Of a DNA stretch of 64,000 nucleotides, positions 7,864-33,898 are shown in pieces. Location of the stretch: contig JAOAGT010000002.1 of assembly GCA_026415615.1 (NCBI GenBank), positions 448,545 to 512,544 of the forward strand, in the 5' to 3' direction. The first letter of the stretch is position 1. The number at the start of each line of letters is the position of its first letter. The notes below the pieces were generated by a model. That model made no database searches and had not been told where the DNA came from. It saw only the letters and a program-made list of their open reading frames with translations. The translations under genes and the position numbers were made by a program. Source of the DNA: Thermoleophilia bacterium. GTDB taxonomy: Bacteria > Actinomycetota > Thermoleophilia > RBG-16-64-13.

Positions 7864-9591
7864 ATGGGAACAGGGCGCATTCCCCCTCCATATCTCCCTA
7901 AAGACCACTGGGAATACAACCTTTACGAATATCACAAGGGGCTCCCCGACAAGAGTCACTACGAGTTCATCGCTAACACACCCGGGGTCAAGACGGCCGA
8001 ATATTGGAAGGAATGGTGCCAGGCCATTTTCTACGCTGGCACTACCCTTTGCATGTGGAACGCACTCCCCGAGGTTAAAGCGGCCTTTCTGTCACTGTGC
8101 TCGTTTGAGCCAGGCATGAAGGTATTTCTGGTGGGCAAGTATTTGTGGGAAAGCGGTCTAGCGGACGCGGTTCGCTCCCTTGTCGGAGATTCGGGAACTC
8201 TCGGCATCCTTGACATGACTGATCAAGTTCTCGAGACTGTGCGTGAGCTGGGTCCGCGGCGGACGGTTCAGTATGAGGCTGCGGGGGCTACTGGCAGCCG
8301 GGCGGCTAGGCCGTTAGTTTGGCCCTTGACGTGTTTTGACGGACTACCAGAAGGAAGCCTAGACAGAGTGGTTTTCTTCAATGGCGGCGCGCATGTAGCT
8401 AATTGGGAGCATGTGGCGTCAGAGATAAGCCGCGTTCTTGGGGAGCACGGACGACTGGTGATGGCGGAAGCTCCTCTGGGCGGTAGGGAGTTTGAGAATG
8501 CTTTGCATCTCGATTCCCATTATGAGTCTTTCATTCTCAGGGTACTTTCCGGCCTAGGTCTGTCGGAGAATGAGCTTCCGTATGTGGACCCTCGGGGTCT
8601 AAGCGAGCTTCTGCGGCCGCATTTTGCGTGGACCAGGTGGTGGTCACACCGGGGCATTCTCCTGTTGTACGGAGCCAAGGGGAAGCACGGTCACGAGATT
8701 GCCGTGCCTGGGCCGGCAGCTTCACTTCCCTGTTCAGACGAGGCAAGGGGTCCAGTGAGCGCATTTCTCGCCGTCAAACCGGTGACCAGCAGCTGGGAGC
8801 TAATGACTGAGCGGGAAAGAGAGATCTGGGGTGAGACTGTCGAGGATATTCTCACCCCTCACATGGGGAAATGCGTCACCTGGGGAGGGGGATCTCTTTG
8901 CTGGAATTACCGCAACCAGCGGGAGATCACGGACATCATGTGGAGCAACCTCGCCGCAAAGCCCGGAGACAAAGTAATGGTGATCGGGGAGTTTCTGCAC
9001 GACCTGGGCACCCTTGAGGAAGTCAAGAGGCGAGTGGGACCTACCGGCCAGGTTTTCCCTGTTGATATAACTGCTTCGCCTTGCTCTTATGATTACAAAG
9101 GTTGGCAGGCTAAGCGTAAAGCCTACATGGATCTAGGTTCACCTGAGGAGTGGCCCTACGATTTTGCGGATGACTTTCCGGACGAGTTTTTCGACGTGCT
9201 GTTCCTGCCTCAAGGTGTACACCACTGCAACAACTGGCTTAGGGACGCTCCCAGACTTCTGCGCGCAGTCAAAGTTGGCGGGCAGGTCATGGCGATCGAG
9301 TGTGGAATCAACCGTCCGGAGATGGCGCTAGCCAGAGATTTAAGTGCTCTTGTGCAGGTGGTGGGCGACCGGGTGTTTCGCATCGCGCTGCCTGAATGGC
9401 TCGTGGGGCCGTTGAGCCCCGAAGGGCCTCTCCCAGCAGGTACTGGCTATGGCCACGAGGGTCGCCCGTACCATGATGTGCCGACGGCGCATCTTCGCGA
9501 GGCCTTTGGCGCGGGGCTTACGGACGTTTGCAGTTTGGAGTACAAGGGCTGGATCCTCTTCTGGGGGTATAAGGCGCCGCGGACTGTCTAA
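7864..9591 (+). CDS. uncharacterised protein with two tandem degenerate class-I methyltransferase-like domains (paralog of 29360-30883)
   Basis: 575 aa, ATG after GAGGAGAG. Each half carries G.KV.(L/V)(V/I)G(K/E)(Y/F)L...G in place of the GxGxG SAM loop, followed by FD.V(F/V)...H.....W....(I/L)RV(L/K).GG(R/Q)(L/V)(V/M). Motifs were recognised by eye only. Confidence 0.75.
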   Translation: MGTGRIPPPYLPKDHWEYNLYEYHKGLPDKSHYEFIANTPGVKTAEYWKEWCQAIFYAGTTLCMWNALPEVKAAFLSLCSFEPGMKVFLVGKYLWESGLADAVRSLVGDSGTLGILDMTDQVLETVRELGPRRTVQYEAAGATGSRAARPLVWPLTCFDGLPEGSLDRVVFFNGGAHVANWEHVASEISRVLGEHGRLVMAEAPLGGREFENALHLDSHYESFILRVLSGLGLSENELPYVDPRGLSELLRPHFAWTRWWSHRGILLLYGAKGKHGHEIAVPGPAASLPCSDEARGPVSAFLAVKPVTSSWELMTEREREIWGETVEDILTPHMGKCVTWGGGSLCWNYRNQREITDIMWSNLAAKPGDKVMVIGEFLHDLGTLEEVKRRVGPTGQVFPVDITASPCSYDYKGWQAKRKAYMDLGSPEEWPYDFADDFPDEFFDVLFLPQGVHHCNNWLRDAPRLLRAVKVGGQVMAIECGINRPEMALARDLSALVQVVGDRVFRIALPEWLVGPLSPEGPLPAGTGYGHEGRPYHDVPTAHLREAFGAGLTDVCSLEYKGWILFWGYKAPRTV

Positions 9592-9603
9592 TTGCAGCAA
9601 AGA

Positions 9604-9653
9604 GCTGAGCGCCCCGCTCGCCCGTCGGATCCGGGGCGAGCGGGGCGCTCAGC
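9604..9653. terminator. bidirectional terminator hairpin between convergent genes
   Basis: 20-bp perfect stem GCTGAGCGCCCCGCTCGCCC / GGGCGAGCGGGGCGCTCAGC with a 10-nt loop. Confidence 0.75.
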
Positions 9654-9743
9654 TGTCTCAGAGCTCAAGCTCTCCCGAGGCTTGTCCTAGCTCGGCAATG
9701 AGTTGCGGGCTAGAAAACTCGCTATATGGTTACTTTCCAATAA

Positions 9744-11111
9744 TCACTGCCCCGGCCACGGTGGCTTCGGGTAAATGGGTTTAGCTGTCCGCTTTGGCCC
9801 TGGGTCTATTACCTCGATCACCCCGTTTTGCCACTGGCCGATGAAGCCAGCGTAACAATCGCGGGCAAGAAGCTGGTTCTCAAACCAAGTATCTCCCAGC
9901 ACAGTCTGGAAATGCTCAGTCTTTAGGACCTCAGCCACTTTCTTGTTGTCCAAAGTGCCGGCCTTTTCGATAGCTTGCTTCAACATGTCAAGCGCAGCCA
10001 CAAAGTAGGCATAGCCGTAGTAGTTCATGTTGGCTTCGGTTCCGACTCTTTGCAGCAGCTTGTCGTGGAGTTGAGCAAGAGCAGGTGAGCTATGCACGCT
10101 CCAGACTCCATAGCCGCAGACCCCCTCCACCACTTTGTAGCCTTGTTCTGGTCCTTTGTCGCCTCCCATGGCAAACGGGAAAGCGCCAAAGGTTGCTCCG
10201 GGGCCCATTACCAGCATGCGCGGGTTATAGCCCAGTTGCATCATCTGGGCCACCATCGGGAAGTTCTGATCTGGGTAGCAGGGTACGAAGAAGCAGTCAG
10301 GATCAGCCTGCTGCACCTTTCGTAGTATCTGAGTGAAGTCTGCGGTGTTGGCAGGAATTGCCTCGTCATAAAGCAGCTTGATTCCCGCGTTCTTGGCCTC
10401 CTGGCGCATAACCTCGGAGTACTCTAGCCCGTGGAGGTCATCGAGATACACCATAGCTACGCTCTTAACTCCCACTTCCTTGAATATATCGATGAGGGTT
10501 GGGATGTCGTAGTGATTTGAATAGCTGAGCAAGCCAAAGAACATCGGCAAGTCGGGCAGCACCTCTTCAATGCTCTTGGCCCCTGCTTCCCCCGAGATGA
10601 GCAGATAACCGTGGGAGTTCGCCACATTCGCGGCTGCGAAGACAAATGCTGTACTTGCGGGAGAAAGGATGAAGTCCACCTTGTCCTCGACCATAAGCTT
10701 CTCAAGGAGCCGCATGCAGGTGTCCATATCGCTCTGGTCGTCGTAGACTTTCATCTCGATGGGGAGTTTCTTGCCATACTCAGCTACGTAAATGCCGCCT
10801 TCGGCATTGACCTCTTCTACCCACATCTTATAGATGACACCCAAAGCATTTTGCTCGAAGAAGCTTAGTGGTCCAGAGATGGGACGGGCGGCTCCGATGA
10901 CTATCTTGTCTTTTCCGCCCAGAGTGGTGGCAGTAGAAGTTTCTGTACTAGGAGCAGCAGTAGTCGTAGGTCCGGATGTGGTCGAAGGTCCGGCAGTTGT
11001 GCTGGGTGCTGCCGTTGTAGTTGTCTCCTTCTCGCCACAAGCAGCAACCAGCAAGGCGACCGCGGCGAGTATGCATACAACGGCCAGAATTCGTAAGTGT
11101 TTAGATCTCAT
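9744..11111 (-). CDS. ABC-type substrate-binding lipoprotein, Leu/Ile/Val-binding (type 1 PBP) family
   Basis: 455 aa. Lipobox LLVAACG and a Thr/Ala/Pro/Ser linker. IVIGAARPISGPLSFFE... is typical of Peripla_BP_6. RBS GAGGGGGA. No permease or ATPase gene nearby. Confidence 0.8.
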   Translation of the reverse strand: MRSKHLRILAVVCILAAVALLVAACGEKETTTTAAPSTTAGPSTTSGPTTTAAPSTETSTATTLGGKDKIVIGAARPISGPLSFFEQNALGVIYKMWVEEVNAEGGIYVAEYGKKLPIEMKVYDDQSDMDTCMRLLEKLMVEDKVDFILSPASTAFVFAAANVANSHGYLLISGEAGAKSIEEVLPDLPMFFGLLSYSNHYDIPTLIDIFKEVGVKSVAMVYLDDLHGLEYSEVMRQEAKNAGIKLLYDEAIPANTADFTQILRKVQQADPDCFFVPCYPDQNFPMVAQMMQLGYNPRMLVMGPGATFGAFPFAMGGDKGPEQGYKVVEGVCGYGVWSVHSSPALAQLHDKLLQRVGTEANMNYYGYAYFVAALDMLKQAIEKAGTLDNKKVAEVLKTEHFQTVLGDTWFENQLLARDCYAGFIGQWQNGVIEVIDPGPKRTAKPIYPKPPWPGQ

Positions 11112-11284: not shown

Positions 11285-12025
11285 CTAATACTTGTCTGGA
11301 GCCGCACCGGGGGCCACACCGGGAGGAGGCGTCTGTATCGGTCTGCCGGTAACCGGATGAGAGCAGTGAAAAGGCAGAACCTCGTGCTCTGGCCAGCGGA
11401 GCGGCATTTGGTCGGCTAGTTCATCCGGACCATAAGGATCCTCGGGGTATGTGGTAGTGAGCAACGGTACAAAGTTAGGCGGCGCGAAAGCCCATCCATT
11501 CTCAAAAGTGCTAAACCATACCGGCCGATAGTCAAGCTTCTTGATCCGCCAGATGCCGTCGCGCTTGACGTAGACATTTTCATAGAGCGCCCCTTCCCAC
11601 CACTGTCGCGAGATGGTGGTGGGAGAGGGGTTGCGTTCGTAATGAGTGCCCGCCTGCATCAGAAGACGAAACCGGCCCCACGCTGTCTGCCGGTCGGGGG
11701 CGACGTCGATGACGTCCTGCATCATGGGGTGGTCAAGCAAGAAGCCGAACACAGGGCCATTCTTGCCGTTGGTGAACTGCTCGCGAAATCGCCCGCAGTA
11801 GAGACGGCGCGCACCTTCCTTGCCTCGGTAAATACCGCCGAAAAAATGAACTTCGCAATCGTCGTCGTAGCAATCCACGGCCTCGTCGTACATGCATTTG
11901 TCGATGAAGTAGCCGTAGAGATGCTGAAGCCGGCGAATTGCTTGTATGTCCTCAACCACCCCCAGGCGGTATTCGAGTTCTCTTACTCGCTCGCTAAGCT
12001 TCTCAAGCTCTGCAACCGGATCCAT
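11285..12025 (-). CDS. SnoaL-like / NTF2-fold protein (SnoaL_4-type)
   Basis: 246 aa. LEYRLGVVEDIQAIRRLQHLYGYFIDKCMYDEAVDCY..D is the typical N-terminus of SnoaL_4 proteins. RBS GGTGGGGGGG. Confidence 0.65.
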   Translation of the reverse strand: MDPVAELEKLSERVRELEYRLGVVEDIQAIRRLQHLYGYFIDKCMYDEAVDCYDDDCEVHFFGGIYRGKEGARRLYCGRFREQFTNGKNGPVFGFLLDHPMMQDVIDVAPDRQTAWGRFRLLMQAGTHYERNPSPTTISRQWWEGALYENVYVKRDGIWRIKKLDYRPVWFSTFENGWAFAPPNFVPLLTTTYPEDPYGPDELADQMPLRWPEHEVLPFHCSHPVTGRPIQTPPPGVAPGAAPDKY

Positions 12026-12066: not shown

Positions 12067-13092
12067 TCAGCTTGCTCCCCGGTACTTCTCAACACCCACC
12101 CCAATAGGCTGGGACATCAAAAAGAAAACTTGCTTTCTTATGTCTCTGATGATCAAAGGTCCCTGACTTACGTTTGGGGGGATATAGGCGAAGAAACTCT
12201 TGGTAATCACGTGCTTCTCGCCCCCAATCCAGAGCTCGACCTCAGCGCAAAGGTCCGTGATGTCCTCGTAGTTAAGACCCAGCATAGCCAGGGAGGTGCC
12301 GTGAGGAACGGCGTGCTCGTCCATGATCACCAACTCCGCCCTTGTCTCTTTGGTGGGCAGATACCATCTGGTGTCACAGCCAAACTCAGCATCAGGGATC
12401 ACGGTCTCGTCAATATAAGCAGCAGGACGAACGTATTCGGGGTCAAGGGGACGCATGTATTCTGGGCGCTTCACATCCGGAGGCGTGCCGAATACTACAT
12501 ACCGGGCGTATTTGGACTCGGCAGGGTCCACGTGTCTGGCCACTGGCGGCTCTTTCTGTTCCTCCTCTGCCTGTTTGGTTTTTTCGTCTTTCTCCCGTGT
12601 GTAGACCCCGCCTGGCCCCGAAGTCCAATGCACGGTCGGGCGGGAGAAATGATGGCCGGTCACCCCTCCTGAGAACACTGGCATATGAGGGAGCCCGGCT
12701 GGTACGTAGGCTACCCAACTGCTTGGGAGGGGAATAATTTCGTCACCCATCTGAATGGCTGTGGGGTCGGTTTTGCTCGGGTCGTCTGGATCGGTTCCCC
12801 ACCAAGAAAGCAGTTCGGGAAAGTCATGGACATGCGGAAACATGGTGGGTGTCTGGTAGCCCAGCTTGGCCAGGTCTTCCCAGGTTACCTGATTGGGATA
12901 GTCAGGAGGCCAAATCCAGGTGGTTTCCCCATAGTAGGCGCCAGGGATCACGTCGTGGTCGATCCAGTGGACATGCTCCATGCTAATCCGCTTCCCTTGG
13001 GCAGCCAGTTGACGCCTCTGCTCTGGGGTGGGGCCGGGCAAGAGGTGCTGCTTCTGCAATGTGGTGCAAATGTACTTGTCAAACTGACCCAT
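12067..13092 (-). CDS. two-domain cupin-like protein (bicupin), uncharacterised subfamily
   Basis: 341 aa, RBS AAGGGAGGG. The N-domain has HVHDFPELLSWWGTDPDDP...YVPAGLPHMP (HxH..E......G and PxGxxH cupin motifs). The C-domain is a degenerate second barrel (AEVELWIGGEKHVI...YIPPNVSQGP). A Lys/Glu-rich linker joins them. Confidence 0.7.
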   Translation of the reverse strand: MGQFDKYICTTLQKQHLLPGPTPEQRRQLAAQGKRISMEHVHWIDHDVIPGAYYGETTWIWPPDYPNQVTWEDLAKLGYQTPTMFPHVHDFPELLSWWGTDPDDPSKTDPTAIQMGDEIIPLPSSWVAYVPAGLPHMPVFSGGVTGHHFSRPTVHWTSGPGGVYTREKDEKTKQAEEEQKEPPVARHVDPAESKYARYVVFGTPPDVKRPEYMRPLDPEYVRPAAYIDETVIPDAEFGCDTRWYLPTKETRAELVIMDEHAVPHGTSLAMLGLNYEDITDLCAEVELWIGGEKHVITKSFFAYIPPNVSQGPLIIRDIRKQVFFLMSQPIGVGVEKYRGAS

Positions 13093-13136
13093 GGCCTTGT
13101 GCCCTCCCTTGACGTGTATCGCGCAGAACGCGCCGC

Positions 13137-13634
13137 CTATGATGTCCCTTTCCCGTAGGGGATTGTTTCAAAATTCATAACCTTGTGGGGATCGAAGTCC
13201 TTGTCTTGCTCAAAATACGGCTCTCTAGTTCCCTCCGGGCCAGCAAGCATGATCTCAACCTGAATTATGGGCTTGTCCACGCGAGTGACTTCTAACGGGC
13301 AGTGGGGAAGGCCAGGTGGGAGATGGACTAGCGTGGGCCGAGTGAATACGTGTTTTTCCATCTCGGGCCCAAAGTGGAGTACTACCTCAGCCTCAAATTC
13401 ATCGGGGTCTTCGGGATTTCCGCTGTACCAGGCCAGGAACTCGTGAAAATTGTGCGTGTGGCAGGGATTATCTCCTCGAAACGGCTTTCGCACAAACTGC
13501 AGGCCCATAGTAAGGGGAAACCCGAGCTGCTGGTGGCCGATCATAAGACCATCGAAGACTACCGTCCCATCTGACTTCATGCTGAGGCGCAAATGGGGCG
13601 GATGATGAATATATTGGTCATACTTTCCGCTCAT
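13137..13634 (-). CDS. cupin domain protein, same subfamily as 12067-13092 and 33431-33898
   Basis: CHTHNFHEFLAWYSGNPEDPDEFEAEVVLHFG...HLPPGLPHCP. ATG 13634 has GGAG 6 nt upstream. An alternative ATG at 13646 lies 3 nt after the SDR stop. Confidence 0.75.
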   Translation of the reverse strand: MSGKYDQYIHHPPHLRLSMKSDGTVVFDGLMIGHQQLGFPLTMGLQFVRKPFRGDNPCHTHNFHEFLAWYSGNPEDPDEFEAEVVLHFGPEMEKHVFTRPTLVHLPPGLPHCPLEVTRVDKPIIQVEIMLAGPEGTREPYFEQDKDFDPHKVMNFETIPYGKGTS

Positions 13635-13649
13635 GCTCGTCTCCATTGG

Positions 13650-14447
13650 TTACATTACCGATCCGCCTGAGACATGGAACACCTGTCCAGTCACATAGCT
13701 TGTAATGTCCGAGGCGAGGATCGCAATAGCATTTGCCATATCCCGCGCAGTGCCAAACCGGCCAAGCGGAAACTCACCCATGATGGCTGCCTGTCTTCTT
13801 TTCATCTCCTCTGGGGAAATGTTGGGGTCGGGCTCTCTTAGAATGGCTCCGAAGTTAGTGGGCACAGGACCGGGTGCCACACAGTTAACCCGAATTCCGT
13901 TTTTTCCTTCTACATACGCCAACTGCTTGGTGAACAAGTCGACGGCGTATTTGGAGATGGCGTACATACCCACCCCCATTTGGTACTGATGCGTGCTTCC
14001 CGAACCCACGTTCACGATGACCCCGTAGCCTCGTTCGCGCATATGAGGGACCACCGCCTGGGTGACGTTCATCGTGCCAATCAGGTTTAACTTAAGCTGC
14101 TTTTCCCAGACTGTAGGATCTTGCTTTTCGATGGGTACGTTGTCCTTGTGCAGGATAGCTCCGGCCACATTGCAGAGGATGTCAATCCGCCCAAATTCTT
14201 CGAGGACTTTCTGGACCATAGCTTTGACGGCCGCATTGTCAGTGATGTCGGCGCTTAGGGCAATACATCTTGGGCCCAAGCTGCGCACGGTTTCTGCGGT
14301 CTTGGCCAGGTTCTCCTCATCAATGTCTGTTACGGCGATGGCCTCGATCCCTTCCTCGGCCAACACCAAGGCCGTCTCTCTCCCTATCCCCACCTGGCTA
14401 GCTGCGCCCGTTACGAGGGCCACTTTGTTCTTGAAACCCAGATCCAT
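13650..14447 (-). CDS. short-chain dehydrogenase/reductase (SDR)
   Basis: 265 aa. TGAASQVGIG cofactor loop, NVAG and YAISKYAV (YxxxK). Confidence 0.9.
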   Translation of the reverse strand: MDLGFKNKVALVTGAASQVGIGRETALVLAEEGIEAIAVTDIDEENLAKTAETVRSLGPRCIALSADITDNAAVKAMVQKVLEEFGRIDILCNVAGAILHKDNVPIEKQDPTVWEKQLKLNLIGTMNVTQAVVPHMRERGYGVIVNVGSGSTHQYQMGVGMYAISKYAVDLFTKQLAYVEGKNGIRVNCVAPGPVPTNFGAILREPDPNISPEEMKRRQAAIMGEFPLGRFGTARDMANAIAILASDITSYVTGQVFHVSGGSVM

Positions 14448-14472: not shown

Positions 14473-16320
14473 TTATGGCCACAGCACTTGGGCTATGTCA
14501 TCGAGACCCAGCTCAAGCAGTTTGGCCTTGCTCGGCTTGCCCGTCTTCGTATCCCAGTCCATCTCGACCAGGTACTGATCGTAAATCTCCTCGTGCGTGA
14601 AGGTGATGCCGGCTCGTGGGCCCACGGTCTTGGGCGGTACGCCTCTCATCCTATCGGGGTAGAGGAAAGGCGTCTGGACACCCTCTCTAATGTTGAAGGC
14701 CTGCCTGACGTTGGTGATTCTTTCACCGGTCTTAAGCAGCTCGTCTGCGCTGATGTCCTCCCAGCCGGTCAGGGCTCTCAGAGCTTCGAGCAGTTGGTCC
14801 ACATGTGGATATGCTCCAATCACAAACTGGCAAAGCCCCATGGCGCTTGCTGCGTGCATGAAGTTGGTGCTGATCTTGTGGTAAAGGCCACGGCCGGTAC
14901 GTTGCTCGCGTGGTATATCGGGTATATTCAAGCCTGGTGGGTGTTGCCCGCCTCCCTGATTGTGTCTTCCGGGGGTGGGGTCGCAGCCATAACCAATGGC
15001 AAATCCCCAACCGCCACGAGGGTCGTGACCAGCAATCTCTTGACCGCCAATGTGCATGGCATATTTCTCTGCGCCCCGACCAATCTTCTCGGCCGCGCGC
15101 TTTACGCCGTCGGCGATGATGTCGCCAAAGCCCTCACGCTTGGCCATCTTCTCGACCATTGCCACGATAGCCTTGTGATTGCCCCAGGTCATCTCAAGGC
15201 CGTCTGTGTCCGCCTGAGAAAGCACGCCGTTTTCATAACACTCAATGGTGAAGGCGATGCAAGCACCCGCAGAGATGGTGTCTAGGCCATAACGATTGCA
15301 GATGTCGGCGGCCAGGATGATGGAGTCAAGGTTTGAGTTCAGGAGGTTGCTCCCCAGCATAGCAAGCGTCTCGTACTCGGGTTTATGAGCGCCCTCCTCA
15401 TACTTGTATTCGCCTGTTCCGGCTTTCATTAGGCCCCCGCAGGCAATGGGGCAACGCCAGCAGGCAAAGCGGCGCATCTGCTTTTCTAATACCGCTTGCC
15501 CTCCACAAGCTGCGTAGTCGGGAAGATCGACGGTAACCACACCGGCCCAATTCTTGGCTGGAGCGTCGTCGATTATGCAGCACATCTCGAATATGCCGGG
15601 GGTGCCGGTTTCGTGTAGCTGCTCAGCATGGCCGGTAAGGGCGGCCACGTGCTTTTTTCTGAGCTCTTTCATTAACTCGGGGTTGTAGGCCGGCGGGATG
15701 AGATTGCCCTGGGCCACGATAGCCTTTAGACGCTTGGAGCCCATGACCGCGCCGAGACCTGAACGGGCCGCGGCTCGGCCCTTATTGTTGATTACCCCGC
15801 TAATTAGAGCGAGCTTCTCGCTCGCTGGACCGATGCAGGCTACCTCCAGGTTCTTGCCGTGTTTGGCGCGCAAGATATCTTCAGTTTCTACAGTGTCTTT
15901 CCCCCAAATCTCTGCGGCGTCCAGGAGTTGGGCCTCCCCATTGTGAAGGTAAAGGTAGACCGGTTTCTCGGAAATTCCGGTGAAAAAGACGGCGTCGTAA
16001 CCAGCGAACTTAAGCTGCGGGCCAAAGCTCCCTCCCGAGTTGGCGTCCCCCCATCCTCCGGTGAGAGGAGATTTGCCGACTACTGTGTAGCGGGAGCCGC
16101 CGACTACGTCGGTGCCAGTGGTTATGCCGGTCACAAAACCCAACGTGGCGTCGGGGCCTAGGGGATCTACTCCTGGCTTTTGCCGGTCCCAGAGCACTCG
16201 CGCGCCTAGCCCGTATCCGCCCAGGTATTTGCGGGCGGCCTGTTCGTCGAAAGTATCTACGGTTATCTCGTGGGTTGTAAGATCCACCCAGAGGATTTTC
16301 TCCATAGCTCCAAAAGCCAA
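14473..16320 (-). CDS. aor: aldehyde:ferredoxin oxidoreductase family (tungstopterin) enzyme
   Basis: 615 aa, TTG start after AAGGAGGT. N-terminal ILWVDLT...YLGGYGLG...GPLTG...GGWGDAN. [4Fe-4S] ligands CWRCPIAC plus GLCQF. GLDTIS pterin motif. Confidence 0.9.
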   Translation of the reverse strand: MAFGAMEKILWVDLTTHEITVDTFDEQAARKYLGGYGLGARVLWDRQKPGVDPLGPDATLGFVTGITTGTDVVGGSRYTVVGKSPLTGGWGDANSGGSFGPQLKFAGYDAVFFTGISEKPVYLYLHNGEAQLLDAAEIWGKDTVETEDILRAKHGKNLEVACIGPASEKLALISGVINNKGRAAARSGLGAVMGSKRLKAIVAQGNLIPPAYNPELMKELRKKHVAALTGHAEQLHETGTPGIFEMCCIIDDAPAKNWAGVVTVDLPDYAACGGQAVLEKQMRRFACWRCPIACGGLMKAGTGEYKYEEGAHKPEYETLAMLGSNLLNSNLDSIILAADICNRYGLDTISAGACIAFTIECYENGVLSQADTDGLEMTWGNHKAIVAMVEKMAKREGFGDIIADGVKRAAEKIGRGAEKYAMHIGGQEIAGHDPRGGWGFAIGYGCDPTPGRHNQGGGQHPPGLNIPDIPREQRTGRGLYHKISTNFMHAASAMGLCQFVIGAYPHVDQLLEALRALTGWEDISADELLKTGERITNVRQAFNIREGVQTPFLYPDRMRGVPPKTVGPRAGITFTHEEIYDQYLVEMDWDTKTGKPSKAKLLELGLDDIAQVLWP

Positions 16321-16398: not shown

Positions 16399-17715
16399 TT
16401 ACTTGCCGGTCACACTGGGAAGCCATGTCGCTAGCCCCGGGATAAGGAACAGGAGCACTACCATCAGCAGCCCGAGGGCAAAGAACGGCATGGAAGAACG
16501 AAACACCTGCCCCAGGGTAGCATGTGGTGGTGCTATAGCCTTCATAGTGTAAACATCCAGTCCAAACGGCGGAGATATCAGACCAAGCTGGATGTTAAGG
16601 AGAGAAACGACCCCGTACCAGATCAGATCGTACCCGAGGGCCTTAGCCAGCGGGAAGAAGATTGGCACCGTGATCATAACGATGCTGGCCGGATCCATGA
16701 ACATGCCGAGGAAGATAAGAATCACTTGAGTAGCGATGATTATGTAGATGGGGGCAATGTTGGCGCCTGTGGCCATATCGATCAGCTTTTGAATGGCCCC
16801 GGTGGTGGCCAGGATGCGGCTGAAGCTAATTGAGCCCACCACAATGAACATAACCATGACGGTGACGCGTACGCAGCTCATGGCGGATTTCGTTACCGTT
16901 TTCCAGCTTAACTGTCGGTAGAAAGCCGCCAGGACAAAGCAGGCTAACACGCCTAGAGCCGCTGCCTCACTCGGGGTGGCCACACCCAGGTATATGCTTC
17001 CGATCACCGCCAGAATGACAATGCCGATTGGGAGGATGTGGAATGTAAACGTGCGAAGCTTGTCTGTGAGGGAGACCTTTTCCACCTCGTAGGTGGGGGC
17101 AAGCGAAGGATCAAGTTTGCAACGTATCATGATGTAGAGGGCAAAGAGAATGGCCAGAAGCACACCGGGGATGATAATGGCCATGAGCAGCTTCCCTACT
17201 GAAATTTGCCCGATGGCTCCCAAAAAGACGGCAAGCGCGCTCGGTGGGATCAGAATGGCTAGGGTCCCGCTGGTGACGATGGGACCGTAAATCATAGCTG
17301 GTTTGTATCCTCGCGCTTCCATTTCGGGTACTAGTACCCGTCCAAGGATGCCAATCGATCCTCCACTGATGCCAATCATCGTCCCCAGAAGGACGCCGGA
17401 CCCTACGGCGAGTAGGCTTAAGCGGCCGGGCACCTTGCCTAGGAGCTTGTCTACCGCGCCCACTATTCGTGCGCCTGCTCCCGAAGAGAAGATGACGTCT
17501 CCCATCAGCACAAAAAGCGGGATGGGTAAAAACGCATAGTTTGCTACCGCGCTGTAAAAGCTCATTGCCAGCTGATCAAGACCCGGCGCCCCGCCCCAAA
17601 ACAGGACAGAACCAATGATGCACGTGAAGGTGAAAGCGAAACATATGGGCATGCCAGTCATCATGATGACAATGAGGCAACCAAACATGATAAGCAGTGA
17701 CGCCAACCATTCCAT
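16399..17715 (-). CDS. TRAP transporter large permease (DctM family)
   Basis: 438 aa polytopic membrane protein with a typical DctM N-terminus, directly after DctQ (9-nt gap). RBS AGGAGG. Confidence 0.9.
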   Translation of the reverse strand: MEWLASLLIMFGCLIVIMMTGMPICFAFTFTCIIGSVLFWGGAPGLDQLAMSFYSAVANYAFLPIPLFVLMGDVIFSSGAGARIVGAVDKLLGKVPGRLSLLAVGSGVLLGTMIGISGGSIGILGRVLVPEMEARGYKPAMIYGPIVTSGTLAILIPPSALAVFLGAIGQISVGKLLMAIIIPGVLLAILFALYIMIRCKLDPSLAPTYEVEKVSLTDKLRTFTFHILPIGIVILAVIGSIYLGVATPSEAAALGVLACFVLAAFYRQLSWKTVTKSAMSCVRVTVMVMFIVVGSISFSRILATTGAIQKLIDMATGANIAPIYIIIATQVILIFLGMFMDPASIVMITVPIFFPLAKALGYDLIWYGVVSLLNIQLGLISPPFGLDVYTMKAIAPPHATLGQVFRSSMPFFALGLLMVVLLFLIPGLATWLPSVTGK

Positions 17716-17724
17716 GGCTGCCTC

Positions 17725-18273
17725 CTACTCTGCTTTACCAGCTGGAGGCTGGGTCTCCGCTGGGGTCGGGGGACTGGTCTGCCGGTAGGCTTTAAAGTAG
17801 TTGACCGCGTGCCTTACTGCCTGGATTGTCAGCACCAGAAACGATATGGGAATGATCATCTCGATGGGCCACTTAACCGGATTAAGCACAGTAGCCAAGA
17901 TGAAGTGGTTGAGGTAGTCGTTGATAGTTAGCCGCGCGGTCAGAAAAAGACATAGGAGGCACAGGGCAACTACTACGCATGAAGTGGCGAAGTTAAGCAA
18001 GTTCTGGGCTCTCTTTGAAAGCATTCCAAGAATGGATTCCATCCTTACATGCCCGTGGTCGCGGTAGATGGCGGCTGTGCCAAGAAAGGTAAGCCACACC
18101 ATCGTGTAGGTCAGAAGCTCATACAAAGGTGCCCAGGTGAAGTCGACTGTCTTTCTGATGATTACGTCCTGTGCTATGGCCAAAGTGTCGAGAAGGATCA
18201 AGATGGCCGAGAGCAGCAGGAGAAAGTTAACAAGCTTGTCAAAAGCTCGGCCAGCTTTCTGTAAGAAGCGCAT
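17725..18273 (-). CDS. TRAP transporter small permease (DctQ family)
   Basis: 182 aa with four hydrophobic segments. Position between the DctP- and DctM-type genes. Confidence 0.8.
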   Translation of the reverse strand: MRFLQKAGRAFDKLVNFLLLLSAILILLDTLAIAQDVIIRKTVDFTWAPLYELLTYTMVWLTFLGTAAIYRDHGHVRMESILGMLSKRAQNLLNFATSCVVVALCLLCLFLTARLTINDYLNHFILATVLNPVKWPIEMIIPISFLVLTIQAVRHAVNYFKAYRQTSPPTPAETQPPAGKAE

Positions 18274-18458: not shown

Positions 18459-19610
18459 TTACTTGGCGCGCTCAAAGTCTGGATTCACGAGCCATTCCTT
18501 GAGCTTGGGGCCAATCTCGGGCCACCTCGCGATGTCTTCGGCCCACATCGACTCGCGGTACTTCAGATAGAACTGCTTTGACTCCTCAGGCGACAGGTGA
18601 ATGATCTTAATACCCGCAGCTTCAAGATCTGCCTTTACCTTTTCCACTGTCTTGTGGAAGTGGTCCGCCATGTCAATCTCGGTTTGAATCATGGCTTGGG
18701 TGAGCACGGCCTTTTGTTTCTCAGTGAGGCTCTCCCACTTCTTGAGGTTCATGATCATCATGCCGCCGCAGGAGCTGAACGGCTCGTCCAGCATAGCCTT
18801 GGTCACAGGCGTGAGTCCGAAGTCCTGAATGCCGGGGATGCCGATGTTGTAGCCGTCGACTGTCCCGCGCTCCATGGCTGTGAAGTACTCAGTAAAGTCT
18901 ATGGGCACGCAGACTGCGCCGAGGGCCTCAATGAAGGAACGGTTGGAACCGCCGGTGGCTGCGATCTTGAGCCCCTTCAAGTCAGCTAGGCCGTTGATAA
19001 CCTTGCCGAGGTAAATGACCGTCTGCTCCTGGGGACGAGACGAGACAGAGGCCCCCAAGTACTTGATGCCGTTCTTAGCAAATTCTTCCTCGTAGTACTT
19101 AAAGGCTGGGTTGCCGTTGCGCAGCTCTGGCGGGCTGTATTCAGCTCGCCCGATGGTGCTGCATCCGGGGACCATGGTGTCGCAATAGGCGGACATTACG
19201 CTCGCGATATCCATCGTGCCCCTTTGTACTGCAGCTGGCTGGTCCGGGGCGGGGATAGCCTCTGGGCCGTTGAACTTGATGGTCATCTTGCCAGCCGAGT
19301 ATTCCTGGACCTTGTTAATGAAGTCGCGGTGCCAGTCGGCTCCCGGGGGAATATCGGGCAAGAAGCAGGCCATGGAAAGCTCGATAGGCTCTACATCAGC
19401 AATTACCTGAGGCCCCGACGCAGCTGTCGTTTCTGTAGATGGCGCAGTAGTCTCAGTGGGCGCAGCCGTAGTGGTTGTCGCGGGTGCTTGGGTGGTAGCG
19501 GTGGTAGCCGGTGCGGCTGTGGTTGTGGTGGCTTCTTCCTCTCCGCACGATACCGCCAGGATAGACAGCGCAAGTACACAGCAAATGGCTATTATGGCCA
19601 GTTTCCTCAT
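18459..19610 (-). CDS. TRAP transporter substrate-binding lipoprotein (DctP family)
   Basis: Preferred start is ATG 19610 (MRKLAIIAICCVLALSILAVSCG lipobox), followed by a Thr/Ala linker. The body is DctP-like. The ORF-track N-terminal 42 aa were judged non-coding. Confidence 0.85.
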   Translation of the reverse strand: MRKLAIIAICCVLALSILAVSCGEEEATTTTAAPATTATTQAPATTTTAAPTETTAPSTETTAASGPQVIADVEPIELSMACFLPDIPPGADWHRDFINKVQEYSAGKMTIKFNGPEAIPAPDQPAAVQRGTMDIASVMSAYCDTMVPGCSTIGRAEYSPPELRNGNPAFKYYEEEFAKNGIKYLGASVSSRPQEQTVIYLGKVINGLADLKGLKIAATGGSNRSFIEALGAVCVPIDFTEYFTAMERGTVDGYNIGIPGIQDFGLTPVTKAMLDEPFSSCGGMMIMNLKKWESLTEKQKAVLTQAMIQTEIDMADHFHKTVEKVKADLEAAGIKIIHLSPEESKQFYLKYRESMWAEDIARWPEIGPKLKEWLVNPDFERAK

Positions 19611-19839
19611 GGTGCCCCCCAATCCTAAGATTGCCTGATTTTGCCAAGTCTGCCTGCTGACGTGGAAGTCATTTCTCGCAAGTGCCGAGATGTGCTCTGG
19701 TCCGCTCCAACCTCCTTTGCTCCCGTTTGCTGTCAAGCCGGAACCTGTTGATCAGTGCCTCCCGGTATCGCCAAGCGTATAGCGTGGTGCTCCCGGGCCG
19801 AGACTGCTACTCCGGCGCGCCCGACTATGTTAGTGAGGA

Positions 19840-19908
19840 CTACTAGCACACGCTACTAGCGAATGCAACCGGTCTGTGTTATGTAGGACAGGTAATCGAG
19901 TTACTAGA
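19840..19908. promoter_or_regulatory. repeated CTACTAGC / TTACTAGA boxes in the TetR-TRAP divergent region (candidate TetR operator)
   Basis: CTACTAGC at 19840-19847 and 19853-19860 (13-bp period). TTACTAGA at 19901-19908. Confidence 0.35.
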
Positions 19909-19971
19909 CAGCGTTCTTACCAGGGCAAGATGCTTCCCTCGGTACTGGGAATGAAAGGCGTGACACACAAC

Positions 19972-20832
19972 ATGGACTACCTTGACTTGCCCGCGGGCAA
20001 GAAAGAAAACACCAAGAAGGATGACGGTACTGGCCCTGAGGGCAACAGTTCGTCGCCACAGACCGGAACCACCCTCACCACCCACACCCGTGAGATCTCG
20101 GGAACTGTAGCTCGCAGTAGTGAGACCGCGGGAACAAACGGAGGAGGCAGCAAGAGGAGCTCCGTATCTCTGCGGTGGAAGACCATGAAGCCCGAACAAA
20201 AGAAGGAGGCGGTTATCAAAGCCGTACTGCGGGTGATAGCCAAACACGGGGTTCAAGGTACCACCACCGCTCGTATCGCTGCAGCTCTGGGGGTATCTGA
20301 GCCGACCATCTACCGAGTTTTCCCGAGCCGGCGGGAAATGCTTCTGGCTGCGGCGCAAAGTCTATGGCGGCAACGCCGTGAAGAGCTCGAGGCGTTTGTT
20401 CCAGTTGACGCTATGGACTATCTAAGGAAGTTATCTGCGCATCACACCGCTGGCATCCAGAAAACCAGAGTAACCCGGTATCTTTACGAGCTTTCGGTTG
20501 CGCGGCCTTCTGATGGACTCCGTGACTACTTGCGCGGGGAAATGATCGCCGAAGCAGAACGTCTTGCGGCTATTGTGGAGCAAGGACAAAAAGAAGGGTG
20601 CATCCGTGCAGACGTAGACCCCGGGGAAACAGCCTGGCGGATCATGACCGTTTACTGGCTTGAGGCTATGGCCCGGCTCCATGGGCTTGAGGACATTCTT
20701 CTCACCGGGTTTTCCACCCGGTTTTTCGACGGGATCCTAACCGACATTGCTGCCGCGCCTCTAGATGCACCAGGTGAGCAGCAAACTGTAGGGCAAAGTA
20801 GCGTCAAAGCGAGCGGTCTTGAGGGAGTGTGA
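19972..20832 (+). CDS. TetR/AcrR family transcriptional regulator
   Basis: HTH TTARIAAALGVSEPTIYRVFPSRREML. The start is uncertain: candidate starts are the ORF-track start at 19876 and ATG at 19972 and 20185. The HTH begins right after 20185, and the region before it is low-complexity. Confidence 0.8.
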   Translation: MDYLDLPAGKKENTKKDDGTGPEGNSSSPQTGTTLTTHTREISGTVARSSETAGTNGGGSKRSSVSLRWKTMKPEQKKEAVIKAVLRVIAKHGVQGTTTARIAAALGVSEPTIYRVFPSRREMLLAAAQSLWRQRREELEAFVPVDAMDYLRKLSAHHTAGIQKTRVTRYLYELSVARPSDGLRDYLRGEMIAEAERLAAIVEQGQKEGCIRADVDPGETAWRIMTVYWLEAMARLHGLEDILLTGFSTRFFDGILTDIAAAPLDAPGEQQTVGQSSVKASGLEGV

Positions 20833-20836
20833 ATAG

Positions 20837-22093
20837 ATGGATCACCAGTCTCCGCAAGTCTTGTACCAAGAGAGATTAAAGAGGATTGAGGACGCCATAG
20901 CACTGCGCCAGCCGGATAGAGTCCCGATCGTGATGTCTGCCGGATATTTTCTGGCTGATCTGGGAGGCATTACCAAACAGCAGCTGCTTGAGGACCCTGA
21001 ACTTTGCCAACAGCTGCTAGAAAAGGCCGCCCTTGAATTTCAGCCTGATTCAATCTGGGGTCCTATGCCGGCGGATCCAACTCCCTCCCTTATTCTGGGG
21101 GACAGACAGAGCGCTTGGCCCGGACACCAGCTTTCGCCCAACAGCCAGTTCCAGTTCGTTGAAGGCGAATTCATGAAGGAAGACGAGTACGAGGAATTCC
21201 TGGAAGATCCCACCGACTGGACCATCCGCACCTATTTGCCGCGGGTGTTTGGGGCGCTTGAAAGCTTTGCGCAGCTGCCGCCTCCGATTCTGTTCCTGTT
21301 TGGCGGGGGTTTTGGCCTTTCTAATTTTGCAATGCTGACCTCAGGGGCATTCGCGGAGTCTTTCAAAGCTTTTGCCAAGGCCTTACAGGCGGTAGCCGAA
21401 GGCCATGAGCGGGCAGCCAGAAATCATGAGCGCATGGCGGCGTTGGGTTTTCCGCCGAGCTTCATGAACGGTCCGATTCTAACCGCTCCCTTCGACGTGA
21501 TGTCTGATGCGGTTCGTGGGATGCGCGGCATTATGCTCGACGTTATTCGGCGTCCCGACAAGCTGCTTGCGGCGCAAGAAAAGGTGATGCGCTTTGAGCT
21601 TAAGTGGGCTCTTGATTTTTGCCGGGCTACGGGCGCAAAGAGAGCTTTTCTGCCTCTTCACAGGGGGTCGGATGGCTTCATGTCGCTGAAGCAGTTTGAG
21701 ACCTTGTACTGGCCGCAGCTGAAGAAGGTTCTCGAGACCCTCATAGAGAACGGCGTGACCCCCGTGGTGTTCTACGAAGGCTGCTGGAATCAAAGACTGG
21801 AGTATCTAGCGGAGCTACCCAAGGGCAAGAGCGTAGGATGGTTCCAAGCAAGCGACATCTTCAAAGTCAAGGAAGTGCTTGGCGACACCATGTGCATCAT
21901 GGGGGGGATGCCAAACTCGCTGCTTAAGGCTGGTCCTGCCGAGGAGGTGCGTGCGTTCACCAAACGCCTTTGCGAAGAGGTTGGCAAGGGCGGGGGATTC
22001 ATCATGACCACCGCGGTTGGCGAATTGGCTGGCTGCGATCCGGATCTCATCAAGGTGTGGGTGGAGGCGACCAAGGAATTTGGGAAAGCTTAG
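20837..22093 (+). CDS. uroporphyrinogen decarboxylase (URO-D)-like / MtaA-CmuA-type methyltransferase superfamily protein
   Basis: 418 aa, starting 4 nt after the TetR stop, RBS GAGGGAG. Begins ...RLKRIEDAIALRQPDRVPIV... and ends with a URO-D-like barrel. Assignment is by overall pattern only. Confidence 0.6.
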   Translation: MDHQSPQVLYQERLKRIEDAIALRQPDRVPIVMSAGYFLADLGGITKQQLLEDPELCQQLLEKAALEFQPDSIWGPMPADPTPSLILGDRQSAWPGHQLSPNSQFQFVEGEFMKEDEYEEFLEDPTDWTIRTYLPRVFGALESFAQLPPPILFLFGGGFGLSNFAMLTSGAFAESFKAFAKALQAVAEGHERAARNHERMAALGFPPSFMNGPILTAPFDVMSDAVRGMRGIMLDVIRRPDKLLAAQEKVMRFELKWALDFCRATGAKRAFLPLHRGSDGFMSLKQFETLYWPQLKKVLETLIENGVTPVVFYEGCWNQRLEYLAELPKGKSVGWFQASDIFKVKEVLGDTMCIMGGMPNSLLKAGPAEEVRAFTKRLCEEVGKGGGFIMTTAVGELAGCDPDLIKVWVEATKEFGKA

Positions 22094-22123: not shown

Positions 22124-22858
22124 ATGGACCTCAAGTTGAAGGATAAAGTTGCGCTCGTTACAGGAGCAGGGAGTCCCATAGGCTATGGCAGGGCAATTGC
22201 TCTCACCCTGGCCGAAGAGGGCTGTCGAGTTGCCTGTGCTGACCTACGACTTGACTGGGCAGAGGAGACCGCTGCCCTAATCAGAGAGGCAGGCGGCGAA
22301 GCCTTCGCAGTCAAGGTTGACGTGACCGACATGGCCCAGGTGGAGGCCATGGTGGAGGCGGTTGTTGCCCGATACGGGCGGATCGACATTCTCGTTAACA
22401 ACGCTGGCAAAAGCAGCATCGACAAACCTTTCATGGAAAAGACCCGGGCAGACTGGGATCTCGATATTCAGGTGAATTTGTATGGCCAAATGAACGTGGC
22501 GCGCGCAGTGATTCCTCACATGGCCAGGCAAGGCTATGGGCGCATCATTAACACTTCCGGCGGGCAGGGCTTGCCGACCGTATCCACTTACGGAGCAGCC
22601 AAAGCAGGGGTGGAAGCATTTACACATTCGTTGGCCATGGAGGTTGCCTCCTTGGGGATCATCGTAAACGCCATTGCCCCGGGGCTGGGGGAGACCGGCC
22701 TGATTTCGGCCAGCGAAGAACACAAAGAGGGGTATCGGCGTATGTCGGCCCTAAAACGCCTTTGCACTCCAGCCGACGTGGCACCTGCGGTGGCGTTTCT
22801 AGCTTCGGATGTTTGTAGCTACATGGTTGGGCAGTGCCTCAGGTTGAGTACCCACTAG
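22124..22858 (+). CDS. short-chain dehydrogenase/reductase (SDR)
   Basis: 244 aa. TGAGSPIGYG, NNAG and YGAAKAGV. Confidence 0.9.
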   Translation: MDLKLKDKVALVTGAGSPIGYGRAIALTLAEEGCRVACADLRLDWAEETAALIREAGGEAFAVKVDVTDMAQVEAMVEAVVARYGRIDILVNNAGKSSIDKPFMEKTRADWDLDIQVNLYGQMNVARAVIPHMARQGYGRIINTSGGQGLPTVSTYGAAKAGVEAFTHSLAMEVASLGIIVNAIAPGLGETGLISASEEHKEGYRRMSALKRLCTPADVAPAVAFLASDVCSYMVGQCLRLSTH

Positions 22859-26367: not shown

Positions 26368-26429
26368 GCTTTGCTTCTGAGGCGAGGCCTGTTGGTGAGA
26401 CATTGGTCGTAGCAGAAGGAAGGAGCGAG

Positions 26430-27704: not shown

Positions 27705-27721
27705 GAAGGAGGTCGAAAGCC

Positions 27722-33430: not shown

Positions 33431-33898
33431 ATGTGCGCAGACGACGTTTCGAGGTATCTAGTTGATCACCCTCCCTACGAAGTGACGCCGCCCGCTGTCG
33501 AGGGTCGCACTTCTCCCATGACTCTGATGAGTCGCAACCTTGTCCCCGAAGCCAATGTCTACGTGGAGGGCGGCTGGATCTTCGGTCCCCCAGATCCAAA
33601 TCCCCACATTCTTGAGCACACTCACAACTACGATGAGCTGGTCATACACGTTGGGTCCGACCCAGAGAACCCCGAGGACCTCGGAGCCGAAATAGAGTTC
33701 ATGCTTGACGGCAAGCCTCTTCTCATTAGCCGGACGTCTTGTGTCTTTGTGCCCAAGGGTATGAAGCACGGCCCGCTTACCTGGAAGCGGTTCACGCGCC
33801 CGCATATCGAACTAACGGTCATGTTAGGAGCAGGCACTCTCGCTGAGGCTGATCCCGGAGGCCATCTGGCTGCCTCAGAGCAGAAGGACACTCCCTAA
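33431..33898 (+). CDS. cupin domain protein, third member of the HxH(N/D)(F/Y).E...G.(D/N)P(E/D)(D/N)P subfamily
   Basis: ATG 33431 after GAAAGGAAAA. EHTHNYDELVIHVGSDPENPEDLGAEIEFMLDG...FVPKGMKHGP. The in-frame upstream extension to 33218 was judged non-coding. Confidence 0.7.
   Translation: MCADDVSRYLVDHPPYEVTPPAVEGRTSPMTLMSRNLVPEANVYVEGGWIFGPPDPNPHILEHTHNYDELVIHVGSDPENPEDLGAEIEFMLDGKPLLISRTSCVFVPKGMKHGPLTWKRFTRPHIELTVMLGAGTLAEADPGGHLAASEQKDTP

Follow-up and report, generated by a model that had tools for sequence, protein, structure and literature searches.

A divergent family of cupins and bicupins encoded beside a tungsten-type aldehyde oxidoreductase in Thermoleophilia and its possible role in oxygen-independent phenolic acid catabolism

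In cupin epimerases of the StnK3/MarH type, the substrate is a beta-substituted arylpyruvate, which is inverted at its beta carbon (PMC4742848). LdpA is a cofactorless lyase that deformylates the lignin beta-1 (diarylpropane) dimer DGPD, and in sphingomonads its product passes to an O2-dependent dioxygenase (PMC9942872). In Sphingobium, ldpA is flanked by genes of short-chain dehydrogenases/reductases (SDRs), which set the C-alpha stereochemistry via a keto intermediate. The anaerobic breakdown of lignin-derived dimers and phenylpropanoid acids is largely unknown, and Dehalococcoidia, Thermoleophilia and Desulfobacterales, which are the suspected agents in sediments, peat and aquifers, are uncultured. 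Here, we describe a family of cupins encoded in a 64,000-nucleotide stretch of a Thermoleophilia bacterium genome (contig JAOAGT010000002.1, positions 448,545 to 512,544, hereafter the window). A small single-barrel cupin and a two-barrel cupin (bicupin) are encoded side by side in an operon with a tungsten-type aldehyde:ferredoxin oxidoreductase (AOR), and a third, single-barrel relative is encoded elsewhere in the window. The three proteins belong to a divergent clade of the cupin superfamily, for which we tentatively propose a metal-assisted, oxygen-independent role.

All three open reading frames (ORFs) named in a preliminary description of the window are present where it placed them, with the sequences it quoted (Table 1). 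The kinship it claimed for their products is borne out by pairwise BLASTP comparisons, in which the small cupin matches the third protein with an E value of 3e-11, the N-terminal half of the bicupin with 7e-8 and its C-terminal half with 4e-6, and the bicupin matches the third protein with 9e-10. As this similarity is far above chance, the 165-, 341- and 155-residue proteins are, on sequence comparison, paralogues. A hidden Markov model (HMM) of the family, built from the small-cupin and third-protein groups, detected exactly four barrels over the 64-kb window, one each in the small cupin and the third protein and two in the bicupin. The bicupin and the third protein are 100% identical to two entries of the same assembly, N3B14_05035, a 'hypothetical protein' of a Thermoleophilia metagenome-assembled genome (MAG), and N3B14_05135, respectively. 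The small-cupin ORF contains a second ATG at 13634, which is probably the true start because it is preceded, 6 nucleotides upstream, by GGAG and because homologues begin with MSGKYD; the length of 165 residues given earlier is thereby supported. Residue numbers of the small cupin below refer to the 169-residue ORF.

Profile searches of Pfam-A and NCBIfam returned no match for any of the three proteins, even at E ≤ 1, and neither the small cupin nor the bicupin had a significant sequence match in the PDB, so the family retains its 'unrecognised' status. Structure prediction, which covered the same two proteins, gave the cupin fold (a double-stranded beta-helix) for both with high confidence. 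The predicted bicupin chain consists of two tandem cupin barrels with a disordered joint at residues 165-180 (AlphaFold2 model, pLDDT 89.1, pTM 0.89), and the third protein was assigned to the family through its sequence homology. Among 60 sampled representatives of the family, 23 gave weak matches to the Pfam model Cupin_2 (best E value 1.2e-9) and three matched AraC_binding. Because of the Cupin_2 matches, the family is a divergent branch inside the cupin superfamily and no new fold. The earlier proposal of a distinct subfamily thus stands in that the family has neither a curated model nor a characterised member, but the family is not outside known cupins.

Each intact barrel carries the canonical 3-His-1-Glu ligand set, as the preliminary description had held, and would be expected to bind a single metal ion. 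The ligands are His63, His65, Glu69 and His115 in the small cupin, His87, His89, Glu93 and His136 in the N barrel of the bicupin and His63, His65, Glu69 and His113 in the third protein. They are invariant in alignments A1, A2 and A3, and all but one of the orthologues (359 of 360) have the pattern HxHx3E. Motif 1 reads H63-T-H65-N-F-H-E69-x6-G76 in the small cupin, H87-V-H89-D-F-P-E93-x5-G99 in the bicupin and H63-T-H65-N-Y-D-E69-x5-G75 in the third protein; the corresponding motifs 2 are P110-P-G-L-P-H115, P131-A-G-L-P-H136 and P108-K-G-M-K-H113. The canonical motifs are therefore found in all three proteins, but the uniform E-x6-G spacing ascribed to them is not, as the Gly of the third protein comes one residue earlier (E-x5-G). 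Motif 2 of the family has an invariant His but no trailing Asn, and 72 of 120 bicupin orthologues have another residue in place of its Gly.

The turn that follows motif 1, which had been described as invariant, proved to be a signature of the family in which only the first [DN]P is nearly so: this dipeptide is present in 347 of the 360 orthologues, the second Pro in 240 and the exact sequence [DN]P[DE][DN]P in 123. The turn reads S-G-N-P-E-D-P in the small cupin, and its Gly is the terminal Gly of the canonical cupin motif 1. Further signatures are an N-P immediately N-terminal to the first ligand His, an invariant Glu on the strand following the turn (E83 of the small cupin, in G-A-E-[VI]) and an H-x-P following the last ligand. 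An N-terminal element, K-Y-x-x-Y-[IV], occurs in many small-cupin and bicupin orthologues (109/120 and 80/120, respectively) but is not family-wide, being found in one of 120 members of the third group and in 40 of 150 wider representatives.

The bicupin combines one intact and one degenerate barrel. Its conserved N-terminal extension, in which K6, Y7, I8 and C9 are invariant, leads into the N barrel, which would be the active one. The C barrel, said to have lost its His ligands, has indeed lost three of the four residues (the equivalents of His65, Glu69 and His115 are Val262, Thr266 and Gln310) but keeps the first of them, His260, which is invariant, as are Tyr275, Glu284 and Glu286; His264 is nearly so. 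Since the barrel is conserved despite its degenerate metal site, it is probably a pseudo-dimer partner or forms a wall of the substrate pocket. The interdomain linker is shorter than the 40 residues first attributed to it: it comprises about 20-30 charged residues, has a pLDDT below 50 at positions 165-180 and varies in length among the orthologues, as seen in indel-rich columns of alignment A2. The K-Y-x-x-Y-[IV] element recurs as S-K-Y-A-R-Y-V at the start of the second half, which shows that the bicupin arose when an entire family unit was duplicated in tandem. The position of the intact site differs across the two-domain members of the family: by a strict pattern, it is in the C barrel only in 33, in both barrels in 29, in the N barrel only in 18 and undetectable in 24. 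One family bicupin, P0472 (402 residues), has a Cys-rich motif of the C-x-W-C-G-K-C type after each barrel, which suggests, from the sequence pattern, that some members have acquired a further Zn or Fe-S site.

The orthologue-group searches gave 203 matches for the small cupin, 320 for the bicupin and 524 or more for the third protein, with identities of up to 60-80%; the bicupin is conserved at 60-80% identity across phyla. When the family profile was run against 1.84 billion representative proteins (clusters at 50% identity), it matched 1,340 at E ≤ 1e-3, 845 at E ≤ 1e-10 and 77 at E ≤ 1e-30. By this measure of sequence similarity, the family is a closed, medium-sized clade set apart from the vast pool of general cupins. 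The top profile matches are mostly two-domain proteins of 280-370 residues, and one protein, P0505, is apparently frameshifted. The longest members (356-458 residues) contain no foreign Pfam domain, and domain fusions gave no hint of function; in particular, none of the sampled members has a DNA-binding or signalling domain fused to the cupin. The 80 bicupin relatives listed all come from MAGs, Dehalococcoidia being in the majority and the remainder belonging to Actinomycetota (Thermoleophilia and Gaiellales), Desulfobacterales and one Leptospirales bin. No cultured organism is among these 80, which accounts for the lack of a characterised member. Current annotation pipelines label it only 'hypothetical protein', which is the source name of every match listed, and a precomputed Pfam domain (Cupin_2) accompanies P0242 only.

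In the window, the two linked cupin genes are the sixth and seventh of a (-) strand operon that runs from a tripartite ATP-independent periplasmic (TRAP) transporter through the AOR and SDR genes to a gene for a SnoaL_4/NTF2-like homologue of LdpA, in the order DctP, DctQ, DctM, AOR, SDR1, small cupin, bicupin, SnoaL_4 protein. The intergenic gaps from the AOR gene through the SnoaL_4 gene are 3 to 44 nucleotides, and the stop codon of SDR1 lies 3 nucleotides ahead of the small-cupin ORF. We examined the conservation of this setting by tblastn and HMM searches for partner genes within 5 kb of the bicupin gene in 73 loci with usable flanks. An SDR was found in 27 loci, another cupin of the family in 25, an AOR in 19, TRAP DctM in 12 and an LdpA-like/NTF2 protein in 10, which includes the co-occurrence with AOR, SDR and TRAP genes that the preliminary description had proposed to analyse (19, 27 and 12 of 73, respectively). 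The robust associations are those with dehydrogenases, the aldehyde oxidoreductase, carboxylate-directed enzymes and transporters.

The full arrangement (TetR, URO-D, SDR2, divergent TRAP, AOR, SDR1, cupin, bicupin and SnoaL_4) is found in about 11 Actinomycetota MAG loci (L001, L009-L016, L084 and L086). A Chloroflexota version consists of AOR, SDR1, an MLE-type protein of the enolase superfamily, small cupin and bicupin (L063) and is rearranged in L057, L058, L060 and L088. SDR1 orthologues with 63-77% identity accompany the cupins in both phyla, and AOR orthologues with 57-78% identity adjoin the bicupin in Actinomycetota, Desulfobacterales and Chloroflexota. In L003-L005, L043, L078 and L085, the AOR gene (63-78% identity) is located directly upstream of the bicupin gene and the small cupin is absent; in L003, the AOR and bicupin genes overlap by 4 nucleotides. 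A radical-SAM/SPASM gene directly follows the AOR-bicupin pair in L003 (11214..12215, (+) strand), L004 and L005. A radical-SAM gene also adjoins aor in Pyrococcus and, by analogy, the SPASM gene product may be a cofactor maturase for AOR.

The two cupins had been portrayed as an enzyme pair specific to this pathway, which is too strong. They are paired in about 15 loci of Thermoleophilia/Gaiellales and some Chloroflexota, in 48 of the 73 loci no other member of the family is encoded within 5 kb of the bicupin, and small-cupin orthologues also occur alone. As bicupins and small cupins are often found apart and third-type cupins form arrays of their own, the pairing is a lineage-specific arrangement. 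The third gene of the window, placed with the other two, does belong to the same family but not to the same orthologue group, its relatives residing in their own cupin/SDR/NTF2 arrays in other genomes. The array of L089 (6001..12128; also L090-L092) has four single family cupins, a reversed bicupin of 306 residues with its site in the C barrel, and genes overlapping by 4 nucleotides; its order is cupin, cupin, NTF2-like (assigned by eye), SDR, reversed bicupin, cupin, SDR and IclR. Such arrays suggest multi-cupin pathways or complexes. A fourth family cupin, 136 residues long, is encoded between the URO-D-like and SDR2 genes of L001 (482..892, (-) strand), L010, L011, L015 and L016; there is none in the window, in which these two genes are 30 nucleotides apart.

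Two further partners were counted in all fetched loci without the 5-kb limit. In 11 loci (L063, at 8564..9745 on the (+) strand; L057, L058, L060, L088, L021-L024, L026 and L066), an MLE-type gene (50-85% identity) is found in the vicinity of the bicupin, immediately downstream in three of them. Its product scores highest with the muconate cycloisomerase model, under the curated cut-off, and lower with acid-sugar dehydratase models. It holds the bicupin-adjacent slot that the LdpA-like protein takes in the window and may be a non-orthologous replacement of it. A GlcDEF-like trio is found near the bicupin in about nine loci of several phyla (e.g. L049, L066, L081 and L003; 64-72% identity in L049) and may be a further member of the functional set of the bicupin.

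The LdpA-like protein of the window is about 45% identical to LdpA (by hand count of residues), whose homologues at 40% identity or less were inactive on DGPD (PMC9942872). When the published key residues of LdpA (PMC9942872) were mapped by hand onto the window protein, the His-Asp dyad, Glu143, Tyr147, Tyr165 and the guaiacyl-binding Tyr35 and Tyr74 were found to be kept, and Gln170 and His183 to be changed to Phe and Asn, respectively. In LdpA, a Glu-Tyr-Gln triad accompanies the dyad and three Tyr bind the alpha-guaiacyl ring; the window protein retains these three Tyr and the Glu and Tyr of the triad. The retention of the guaiacyl-binding tyrosines suggests, at the level of sequence, a phenolic substrate for the Thermoleophilia operon. 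That an operon with an AOR gene should also encode an LdpA-like protein in an uncultured member of the Thermoleophilia is worth recording on its own.

Combining these observations, we tentatively favour, at somewhat less than an even chance, a model in which the cupins perform oxygen-independent, metal-assisted Lewis-acid/enolate chemistry on a phenolic hydroxy- or oxo-acid and deliver an aldehyde to AOR. A neighbouring dehydrogenase would make the carbonyl (2-oxo) form of a phenolic hydroxy acid that is probably derived from plants or lignin. The cupin metal would chelate the keto form and promote its enolisation, leading either to epimerisation/isomerisation or to a retro-aldol or decarboxylative cleavage of a C-C bond, and the aldehyde product would be oxidised by AOR. 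The small cupin and the bicupin would most likely catalyse separate, successive steps and need not form an obligate complex.

Several lines of evidence point towards this model. Catalysis is favoured by the invariance of the 3-His-1-Glu site and the strong conservation of the pocket. The linkage to AOR and the host lineages argue for oxygen independence, and the oxygen-independent role envisaged in the preliminary description is accordingly plausible, with a tungsten AOR adjacent and the family mostly in lineages of anaerobes. Carbonyl/enolate chemistry on a carboxylic acid is suggested by the nearest relatives and the recurring partners. The family profile reached only two PDB entries, 7EQK (E 0.007) and 6J4B (E 0.014), aligning about 60 residues; 7EQK was deposited as a non-heme-iron epimerase/lyase, and we take both to be of the StnK3/MarH type, whose substrate is beta-methyl-indolepyruvate. 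BacB and AerE, the latter with bound 4-hydroxyphenylpyruvate, rank high among the matches of the bicupin. The recurring partners (TRAP, SDR, the GlcDEF-like trio, the enolase-superfamily protein and AOR) all handle hydroxy/oxo acids or aldehydes. A phenolic substrate is additionally supported by the presence in the window of a CdmB-like methyltransferase and a molybdoenzyme resembling pyrogallol hydroxytransferase, an enzyme type that is a marker of anaerobic polyphenol metabolism.

Other observations weigh against this assignment. None of SDR, family cupin, AOR or NTF2 was found within 5 kb of the bicupin in 32 of the 73 loci, and an LdpA-like gene lies beside it in only about 10. The clade has no characterised member, and the profile matches to 7EQK and 6J4B are marginal (E about 0.01), both structures lacking the loop of the family. 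Known LdpA substrates carry no carboxylate, which TRAP systems normally need. The 3-His-1-Glu site is equally typical of dioxygenases.

This last point opens the way to an alternative, which we regard as unlikely though worth attention, in which the cupins are O2-dependent dioxygenases that cleave either an aromatic ring or, like lignostilbene dioxygenase, the alkene (stilbene or enol) released by the LdpA-like lyase. The shared ligand set and bicupin shape agree with it, as does the use of an oxygenase downstream of LdpA in sphingomonads (PMC9942872). Respiration is moreover possible for the organism, since its genome encodes an electron-transferring-flavoprotein:ubiquinone oxidoreductase. 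However, the family is found mostly in MAGs of Dehalococcoidia and Desulfobacterales, and its resemblance to cupin dioxygenases such as quercetinase and gentisate 1,2-dioxygenase is structural only, with no link at the sequence level to any dioxygenase family in the PDB by single sequence or profile. The cupin genes also share their operon with AOR, and tungsten enzymes of this type are usually oxygen-sensitive. Improbable in our view is a sugar-acid or uronate module, in which the cupins would linearise and isomerise a keto-deoxy sugar acid in the manner of KdgF (a small cupin) and KduI (a bicupin), acting with KduD (an SDR) and a TRAP transporter. The triad of small cupin, bicupin and SDR together with TRAP fits this picture, SDR1 matches the KduD model at 5e-43 (under its cut-off), and 11 loci have an enolase-superfamily neighbour. 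Yet that neighbour fits the muconate-cycloisomerase model best, KduI and KdgF are not top matches and rank in the middle by structural similarity, and the site of the window bicupin is in the N barrel whereas that of KduI is in the C-terminal barrel. Furthermore, no polysaccharide lyase, kinase or aldolase is present among the operon genes scanned, and LdpA-like, CdmB-like and AOR partners are unsuited to a uronate route.

Least credible to us, and given little weight, is the notion that the cupins are not enzymes and serve as ligand-binding or accessory proteins, such as an AOR-associated subunit, a metallochaperone or a sensor. Many cupins are indeed non-catalytic, AraC_binding is matched by the three relatives mentioned above, and the bicupin gene overlaps the AOR stop codon in L003 and lies between the AOR and radical-SAM/SPASM genes in L003-L005. 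Nevertheless, 54 of the 73 loci have no AOR within 5 kb of the bicupin, the sampled members are free of fused DNA-binding or signalling domains, and the metal ligands are all invariant, as are many residues of the pocket.

A narrower version of the enolate model, which we regard as a long shot, is that the set of AOR, SDR, cupin, bicupin and LdpA-like (or MLE-type) protein enables uncultured anaerobes to cleave C-C bonds of phenylpropanoid or beta-1-type compounds from lignin without O2. The cupins would then perform an epimerisation or retro-aldol step in place of the O2-dependent stilbene dioxygenase of aerobes, and AOR would take up the aldehyde. The family provides a cloneable candidate enzyme set for anaerobic aromatic catabolism, and its interest rests more on gene context than on fold. 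Even if the chemistry turns out to be an ordinary isomerisation, a useful family definition for annotation will have been gained.

Table 1 Features of the window discussed in the text
Feature	Coordinates	Strand	Length	Basis or description
Methyltransferase-like protein	7864..9591	(+)	575 aa	Weak methyltransferase-domain match
SnoaL_4/NTF2-like, LdpA homologue	11285..12025	(-)		Pfam SnoaL_4 7.7e-24; PDB 8ABV/8ABT 2e-56, 4e-54
Bicupin	12067..13092	(-)	341 aa	
Bicupin C-terminal barrel	12067..12522	(-)	aa 191-341 + stop	BLASTP 4e-6; family HMM 8.6e-9; A2 conservation
Bicupin interdomain linker, Lys/Glu-rich	12523..12612	(-)	~aa 161-190	pLDDT; indel-rich A2 columns
Bicupin N-terminal half	12613..13092	(-)	aa 1-160	35-orthologue alignment A2; BLASTP to small cupin 7e-8
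Small single-barrel cupin, ORF	13137..13646	(-)	169 aa	
Small cupin, likely product	13137..13634	(-)	165 aa	
Small cupin, metal-site motifs	13296..13460	(-)		
SDR1	13650..14447	(-)		Pfam adh_short; top PDB BbsD, PtmO8, 7alpha-HSDH
AOR, tungsten-type	14473..16320	(-)		Pfam AFOR_N, AFOR_C; PDB 1AOR 2.8e-97
TRAP DctM	16399..17715	(-)		Pfam DctM
TRAP DctQ	17725..18273	(-)		Pfam DctQ
TRAP DctP, solute-binding protein	18459..19736	(-)		Pfam DctP; best PDB match 4MNC 2e-22
TetR regulator	19876..20832	(+)		Pfam; divergent from operon
URO-D-fold protein, CdmB-related	20837..22093	(+)	418 aa	C-terminal half to CdmB 9RUI 7e-38
Second SDR (SDR2)	22124..22858	(+)		Pfam
GlcDEF-like trio	24901..29212	(+)		FAD_binding_4, CCG, FAD_binding_4
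Methyltransferase-like protein	29360..30883	(+)	507 aa	Weak methyltransferase-domain match
Third, unlinked single-barrel paralogue	33431..33898	(+)	155 aa	BLASTP 3e-11 to small cupin
Third protein, metal-site motifs	33617..33775	(+)		
Molybdopterin oxidoreductase	41589..44093	(-)	834 aa	First domain AhtL-like (pyrogallol hydroxytransferase large subunit-like)

Of the proteins with solved structures, the best relative of the URO-D-fold protein is CdmB, which acts as substrate:corrinoid methyltransferase in the chloromethane system of Acetobacterium; the cluster genes scanned included none for a corrinoid protein. In L051, a bicupin gene adjoins that of a distant homologue (38% identity) of the 834-residue molybdoenzyme. 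The solved TRAP binding protein closest to DctP (4MNC/4MNI) may have benzoylformate as its ligand, a point given no weight here. The catabolic region is flanked by the two genes with weak methyltransferase-domain matches, the first of which is apparently internally duplicated. A scan for promoters and terminators between 9 and 23 kb gave counts equal to those expected by chance. Two other contexts were considered and rejected, namely that of a class II benzoyl-CoA reductase, as the AOR fits Pyrococcus furiosus AOR far better than BamB (2.8e-97 versus 3e-56), and that of a dihydrophloroglucinol cyclohydrolase beside an SDR reductase (the phloroglucinol pathway), as the characterised enzyme belongs to the cyclase/isatin-hydrolase family and is not a cupin.

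Among known systems, LdpA with the SDRs LdpB and LdpC of Sphingobium/Novosphingobium resembles the locus in that the LdpA-like gene of the window lies close to an SDR gene, as in strain SYK-6; the published system is without cupins, AOR and TRAP, and the comparison concerns the neighbour gene and not the cupins. Among cupins, 7EQK and 6J4B are 119-131 residues long, lack the N-terminal extension, have a five-residue gap at the D-P loop of the family and are of a type that acts in antibiotic biosynthesis, whereas the window cupins belong to a catabolic operon. BacB and AerE, the bicupin isomerases of dihydro-hydroxyphenylpyruvate, have about 12-13% identity to the bicupin and no sequence-level match with it; they are shorter (210-224 residues), without the charged linker, and biosynthetic. 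The bicupins OxdC and quercetin 2,3-dioxygenase have 11-14% identity and use or need O2, and OxdC has a metal in both barrels, in contrast to the window bicupin with its site in the N barrel only. With Pfam Cupin_2 (PF07883), the model of generic small bacterial cupins, the family shares the two-motif 3-His-1-Glu site and the double-stranded beta-helix, and it differs from it by about 55 extra N-terminal residues, the G-x-[DN]-P loop after motif 1, the invariant Glu and, in two of the three orthologue groups, the frequent K-Y-x-x-Y-[IV] strand. The cupin superfamily and its canonical metal motifs are thus what is known here, and what is new is a definable, previously unmodelled clade within it.

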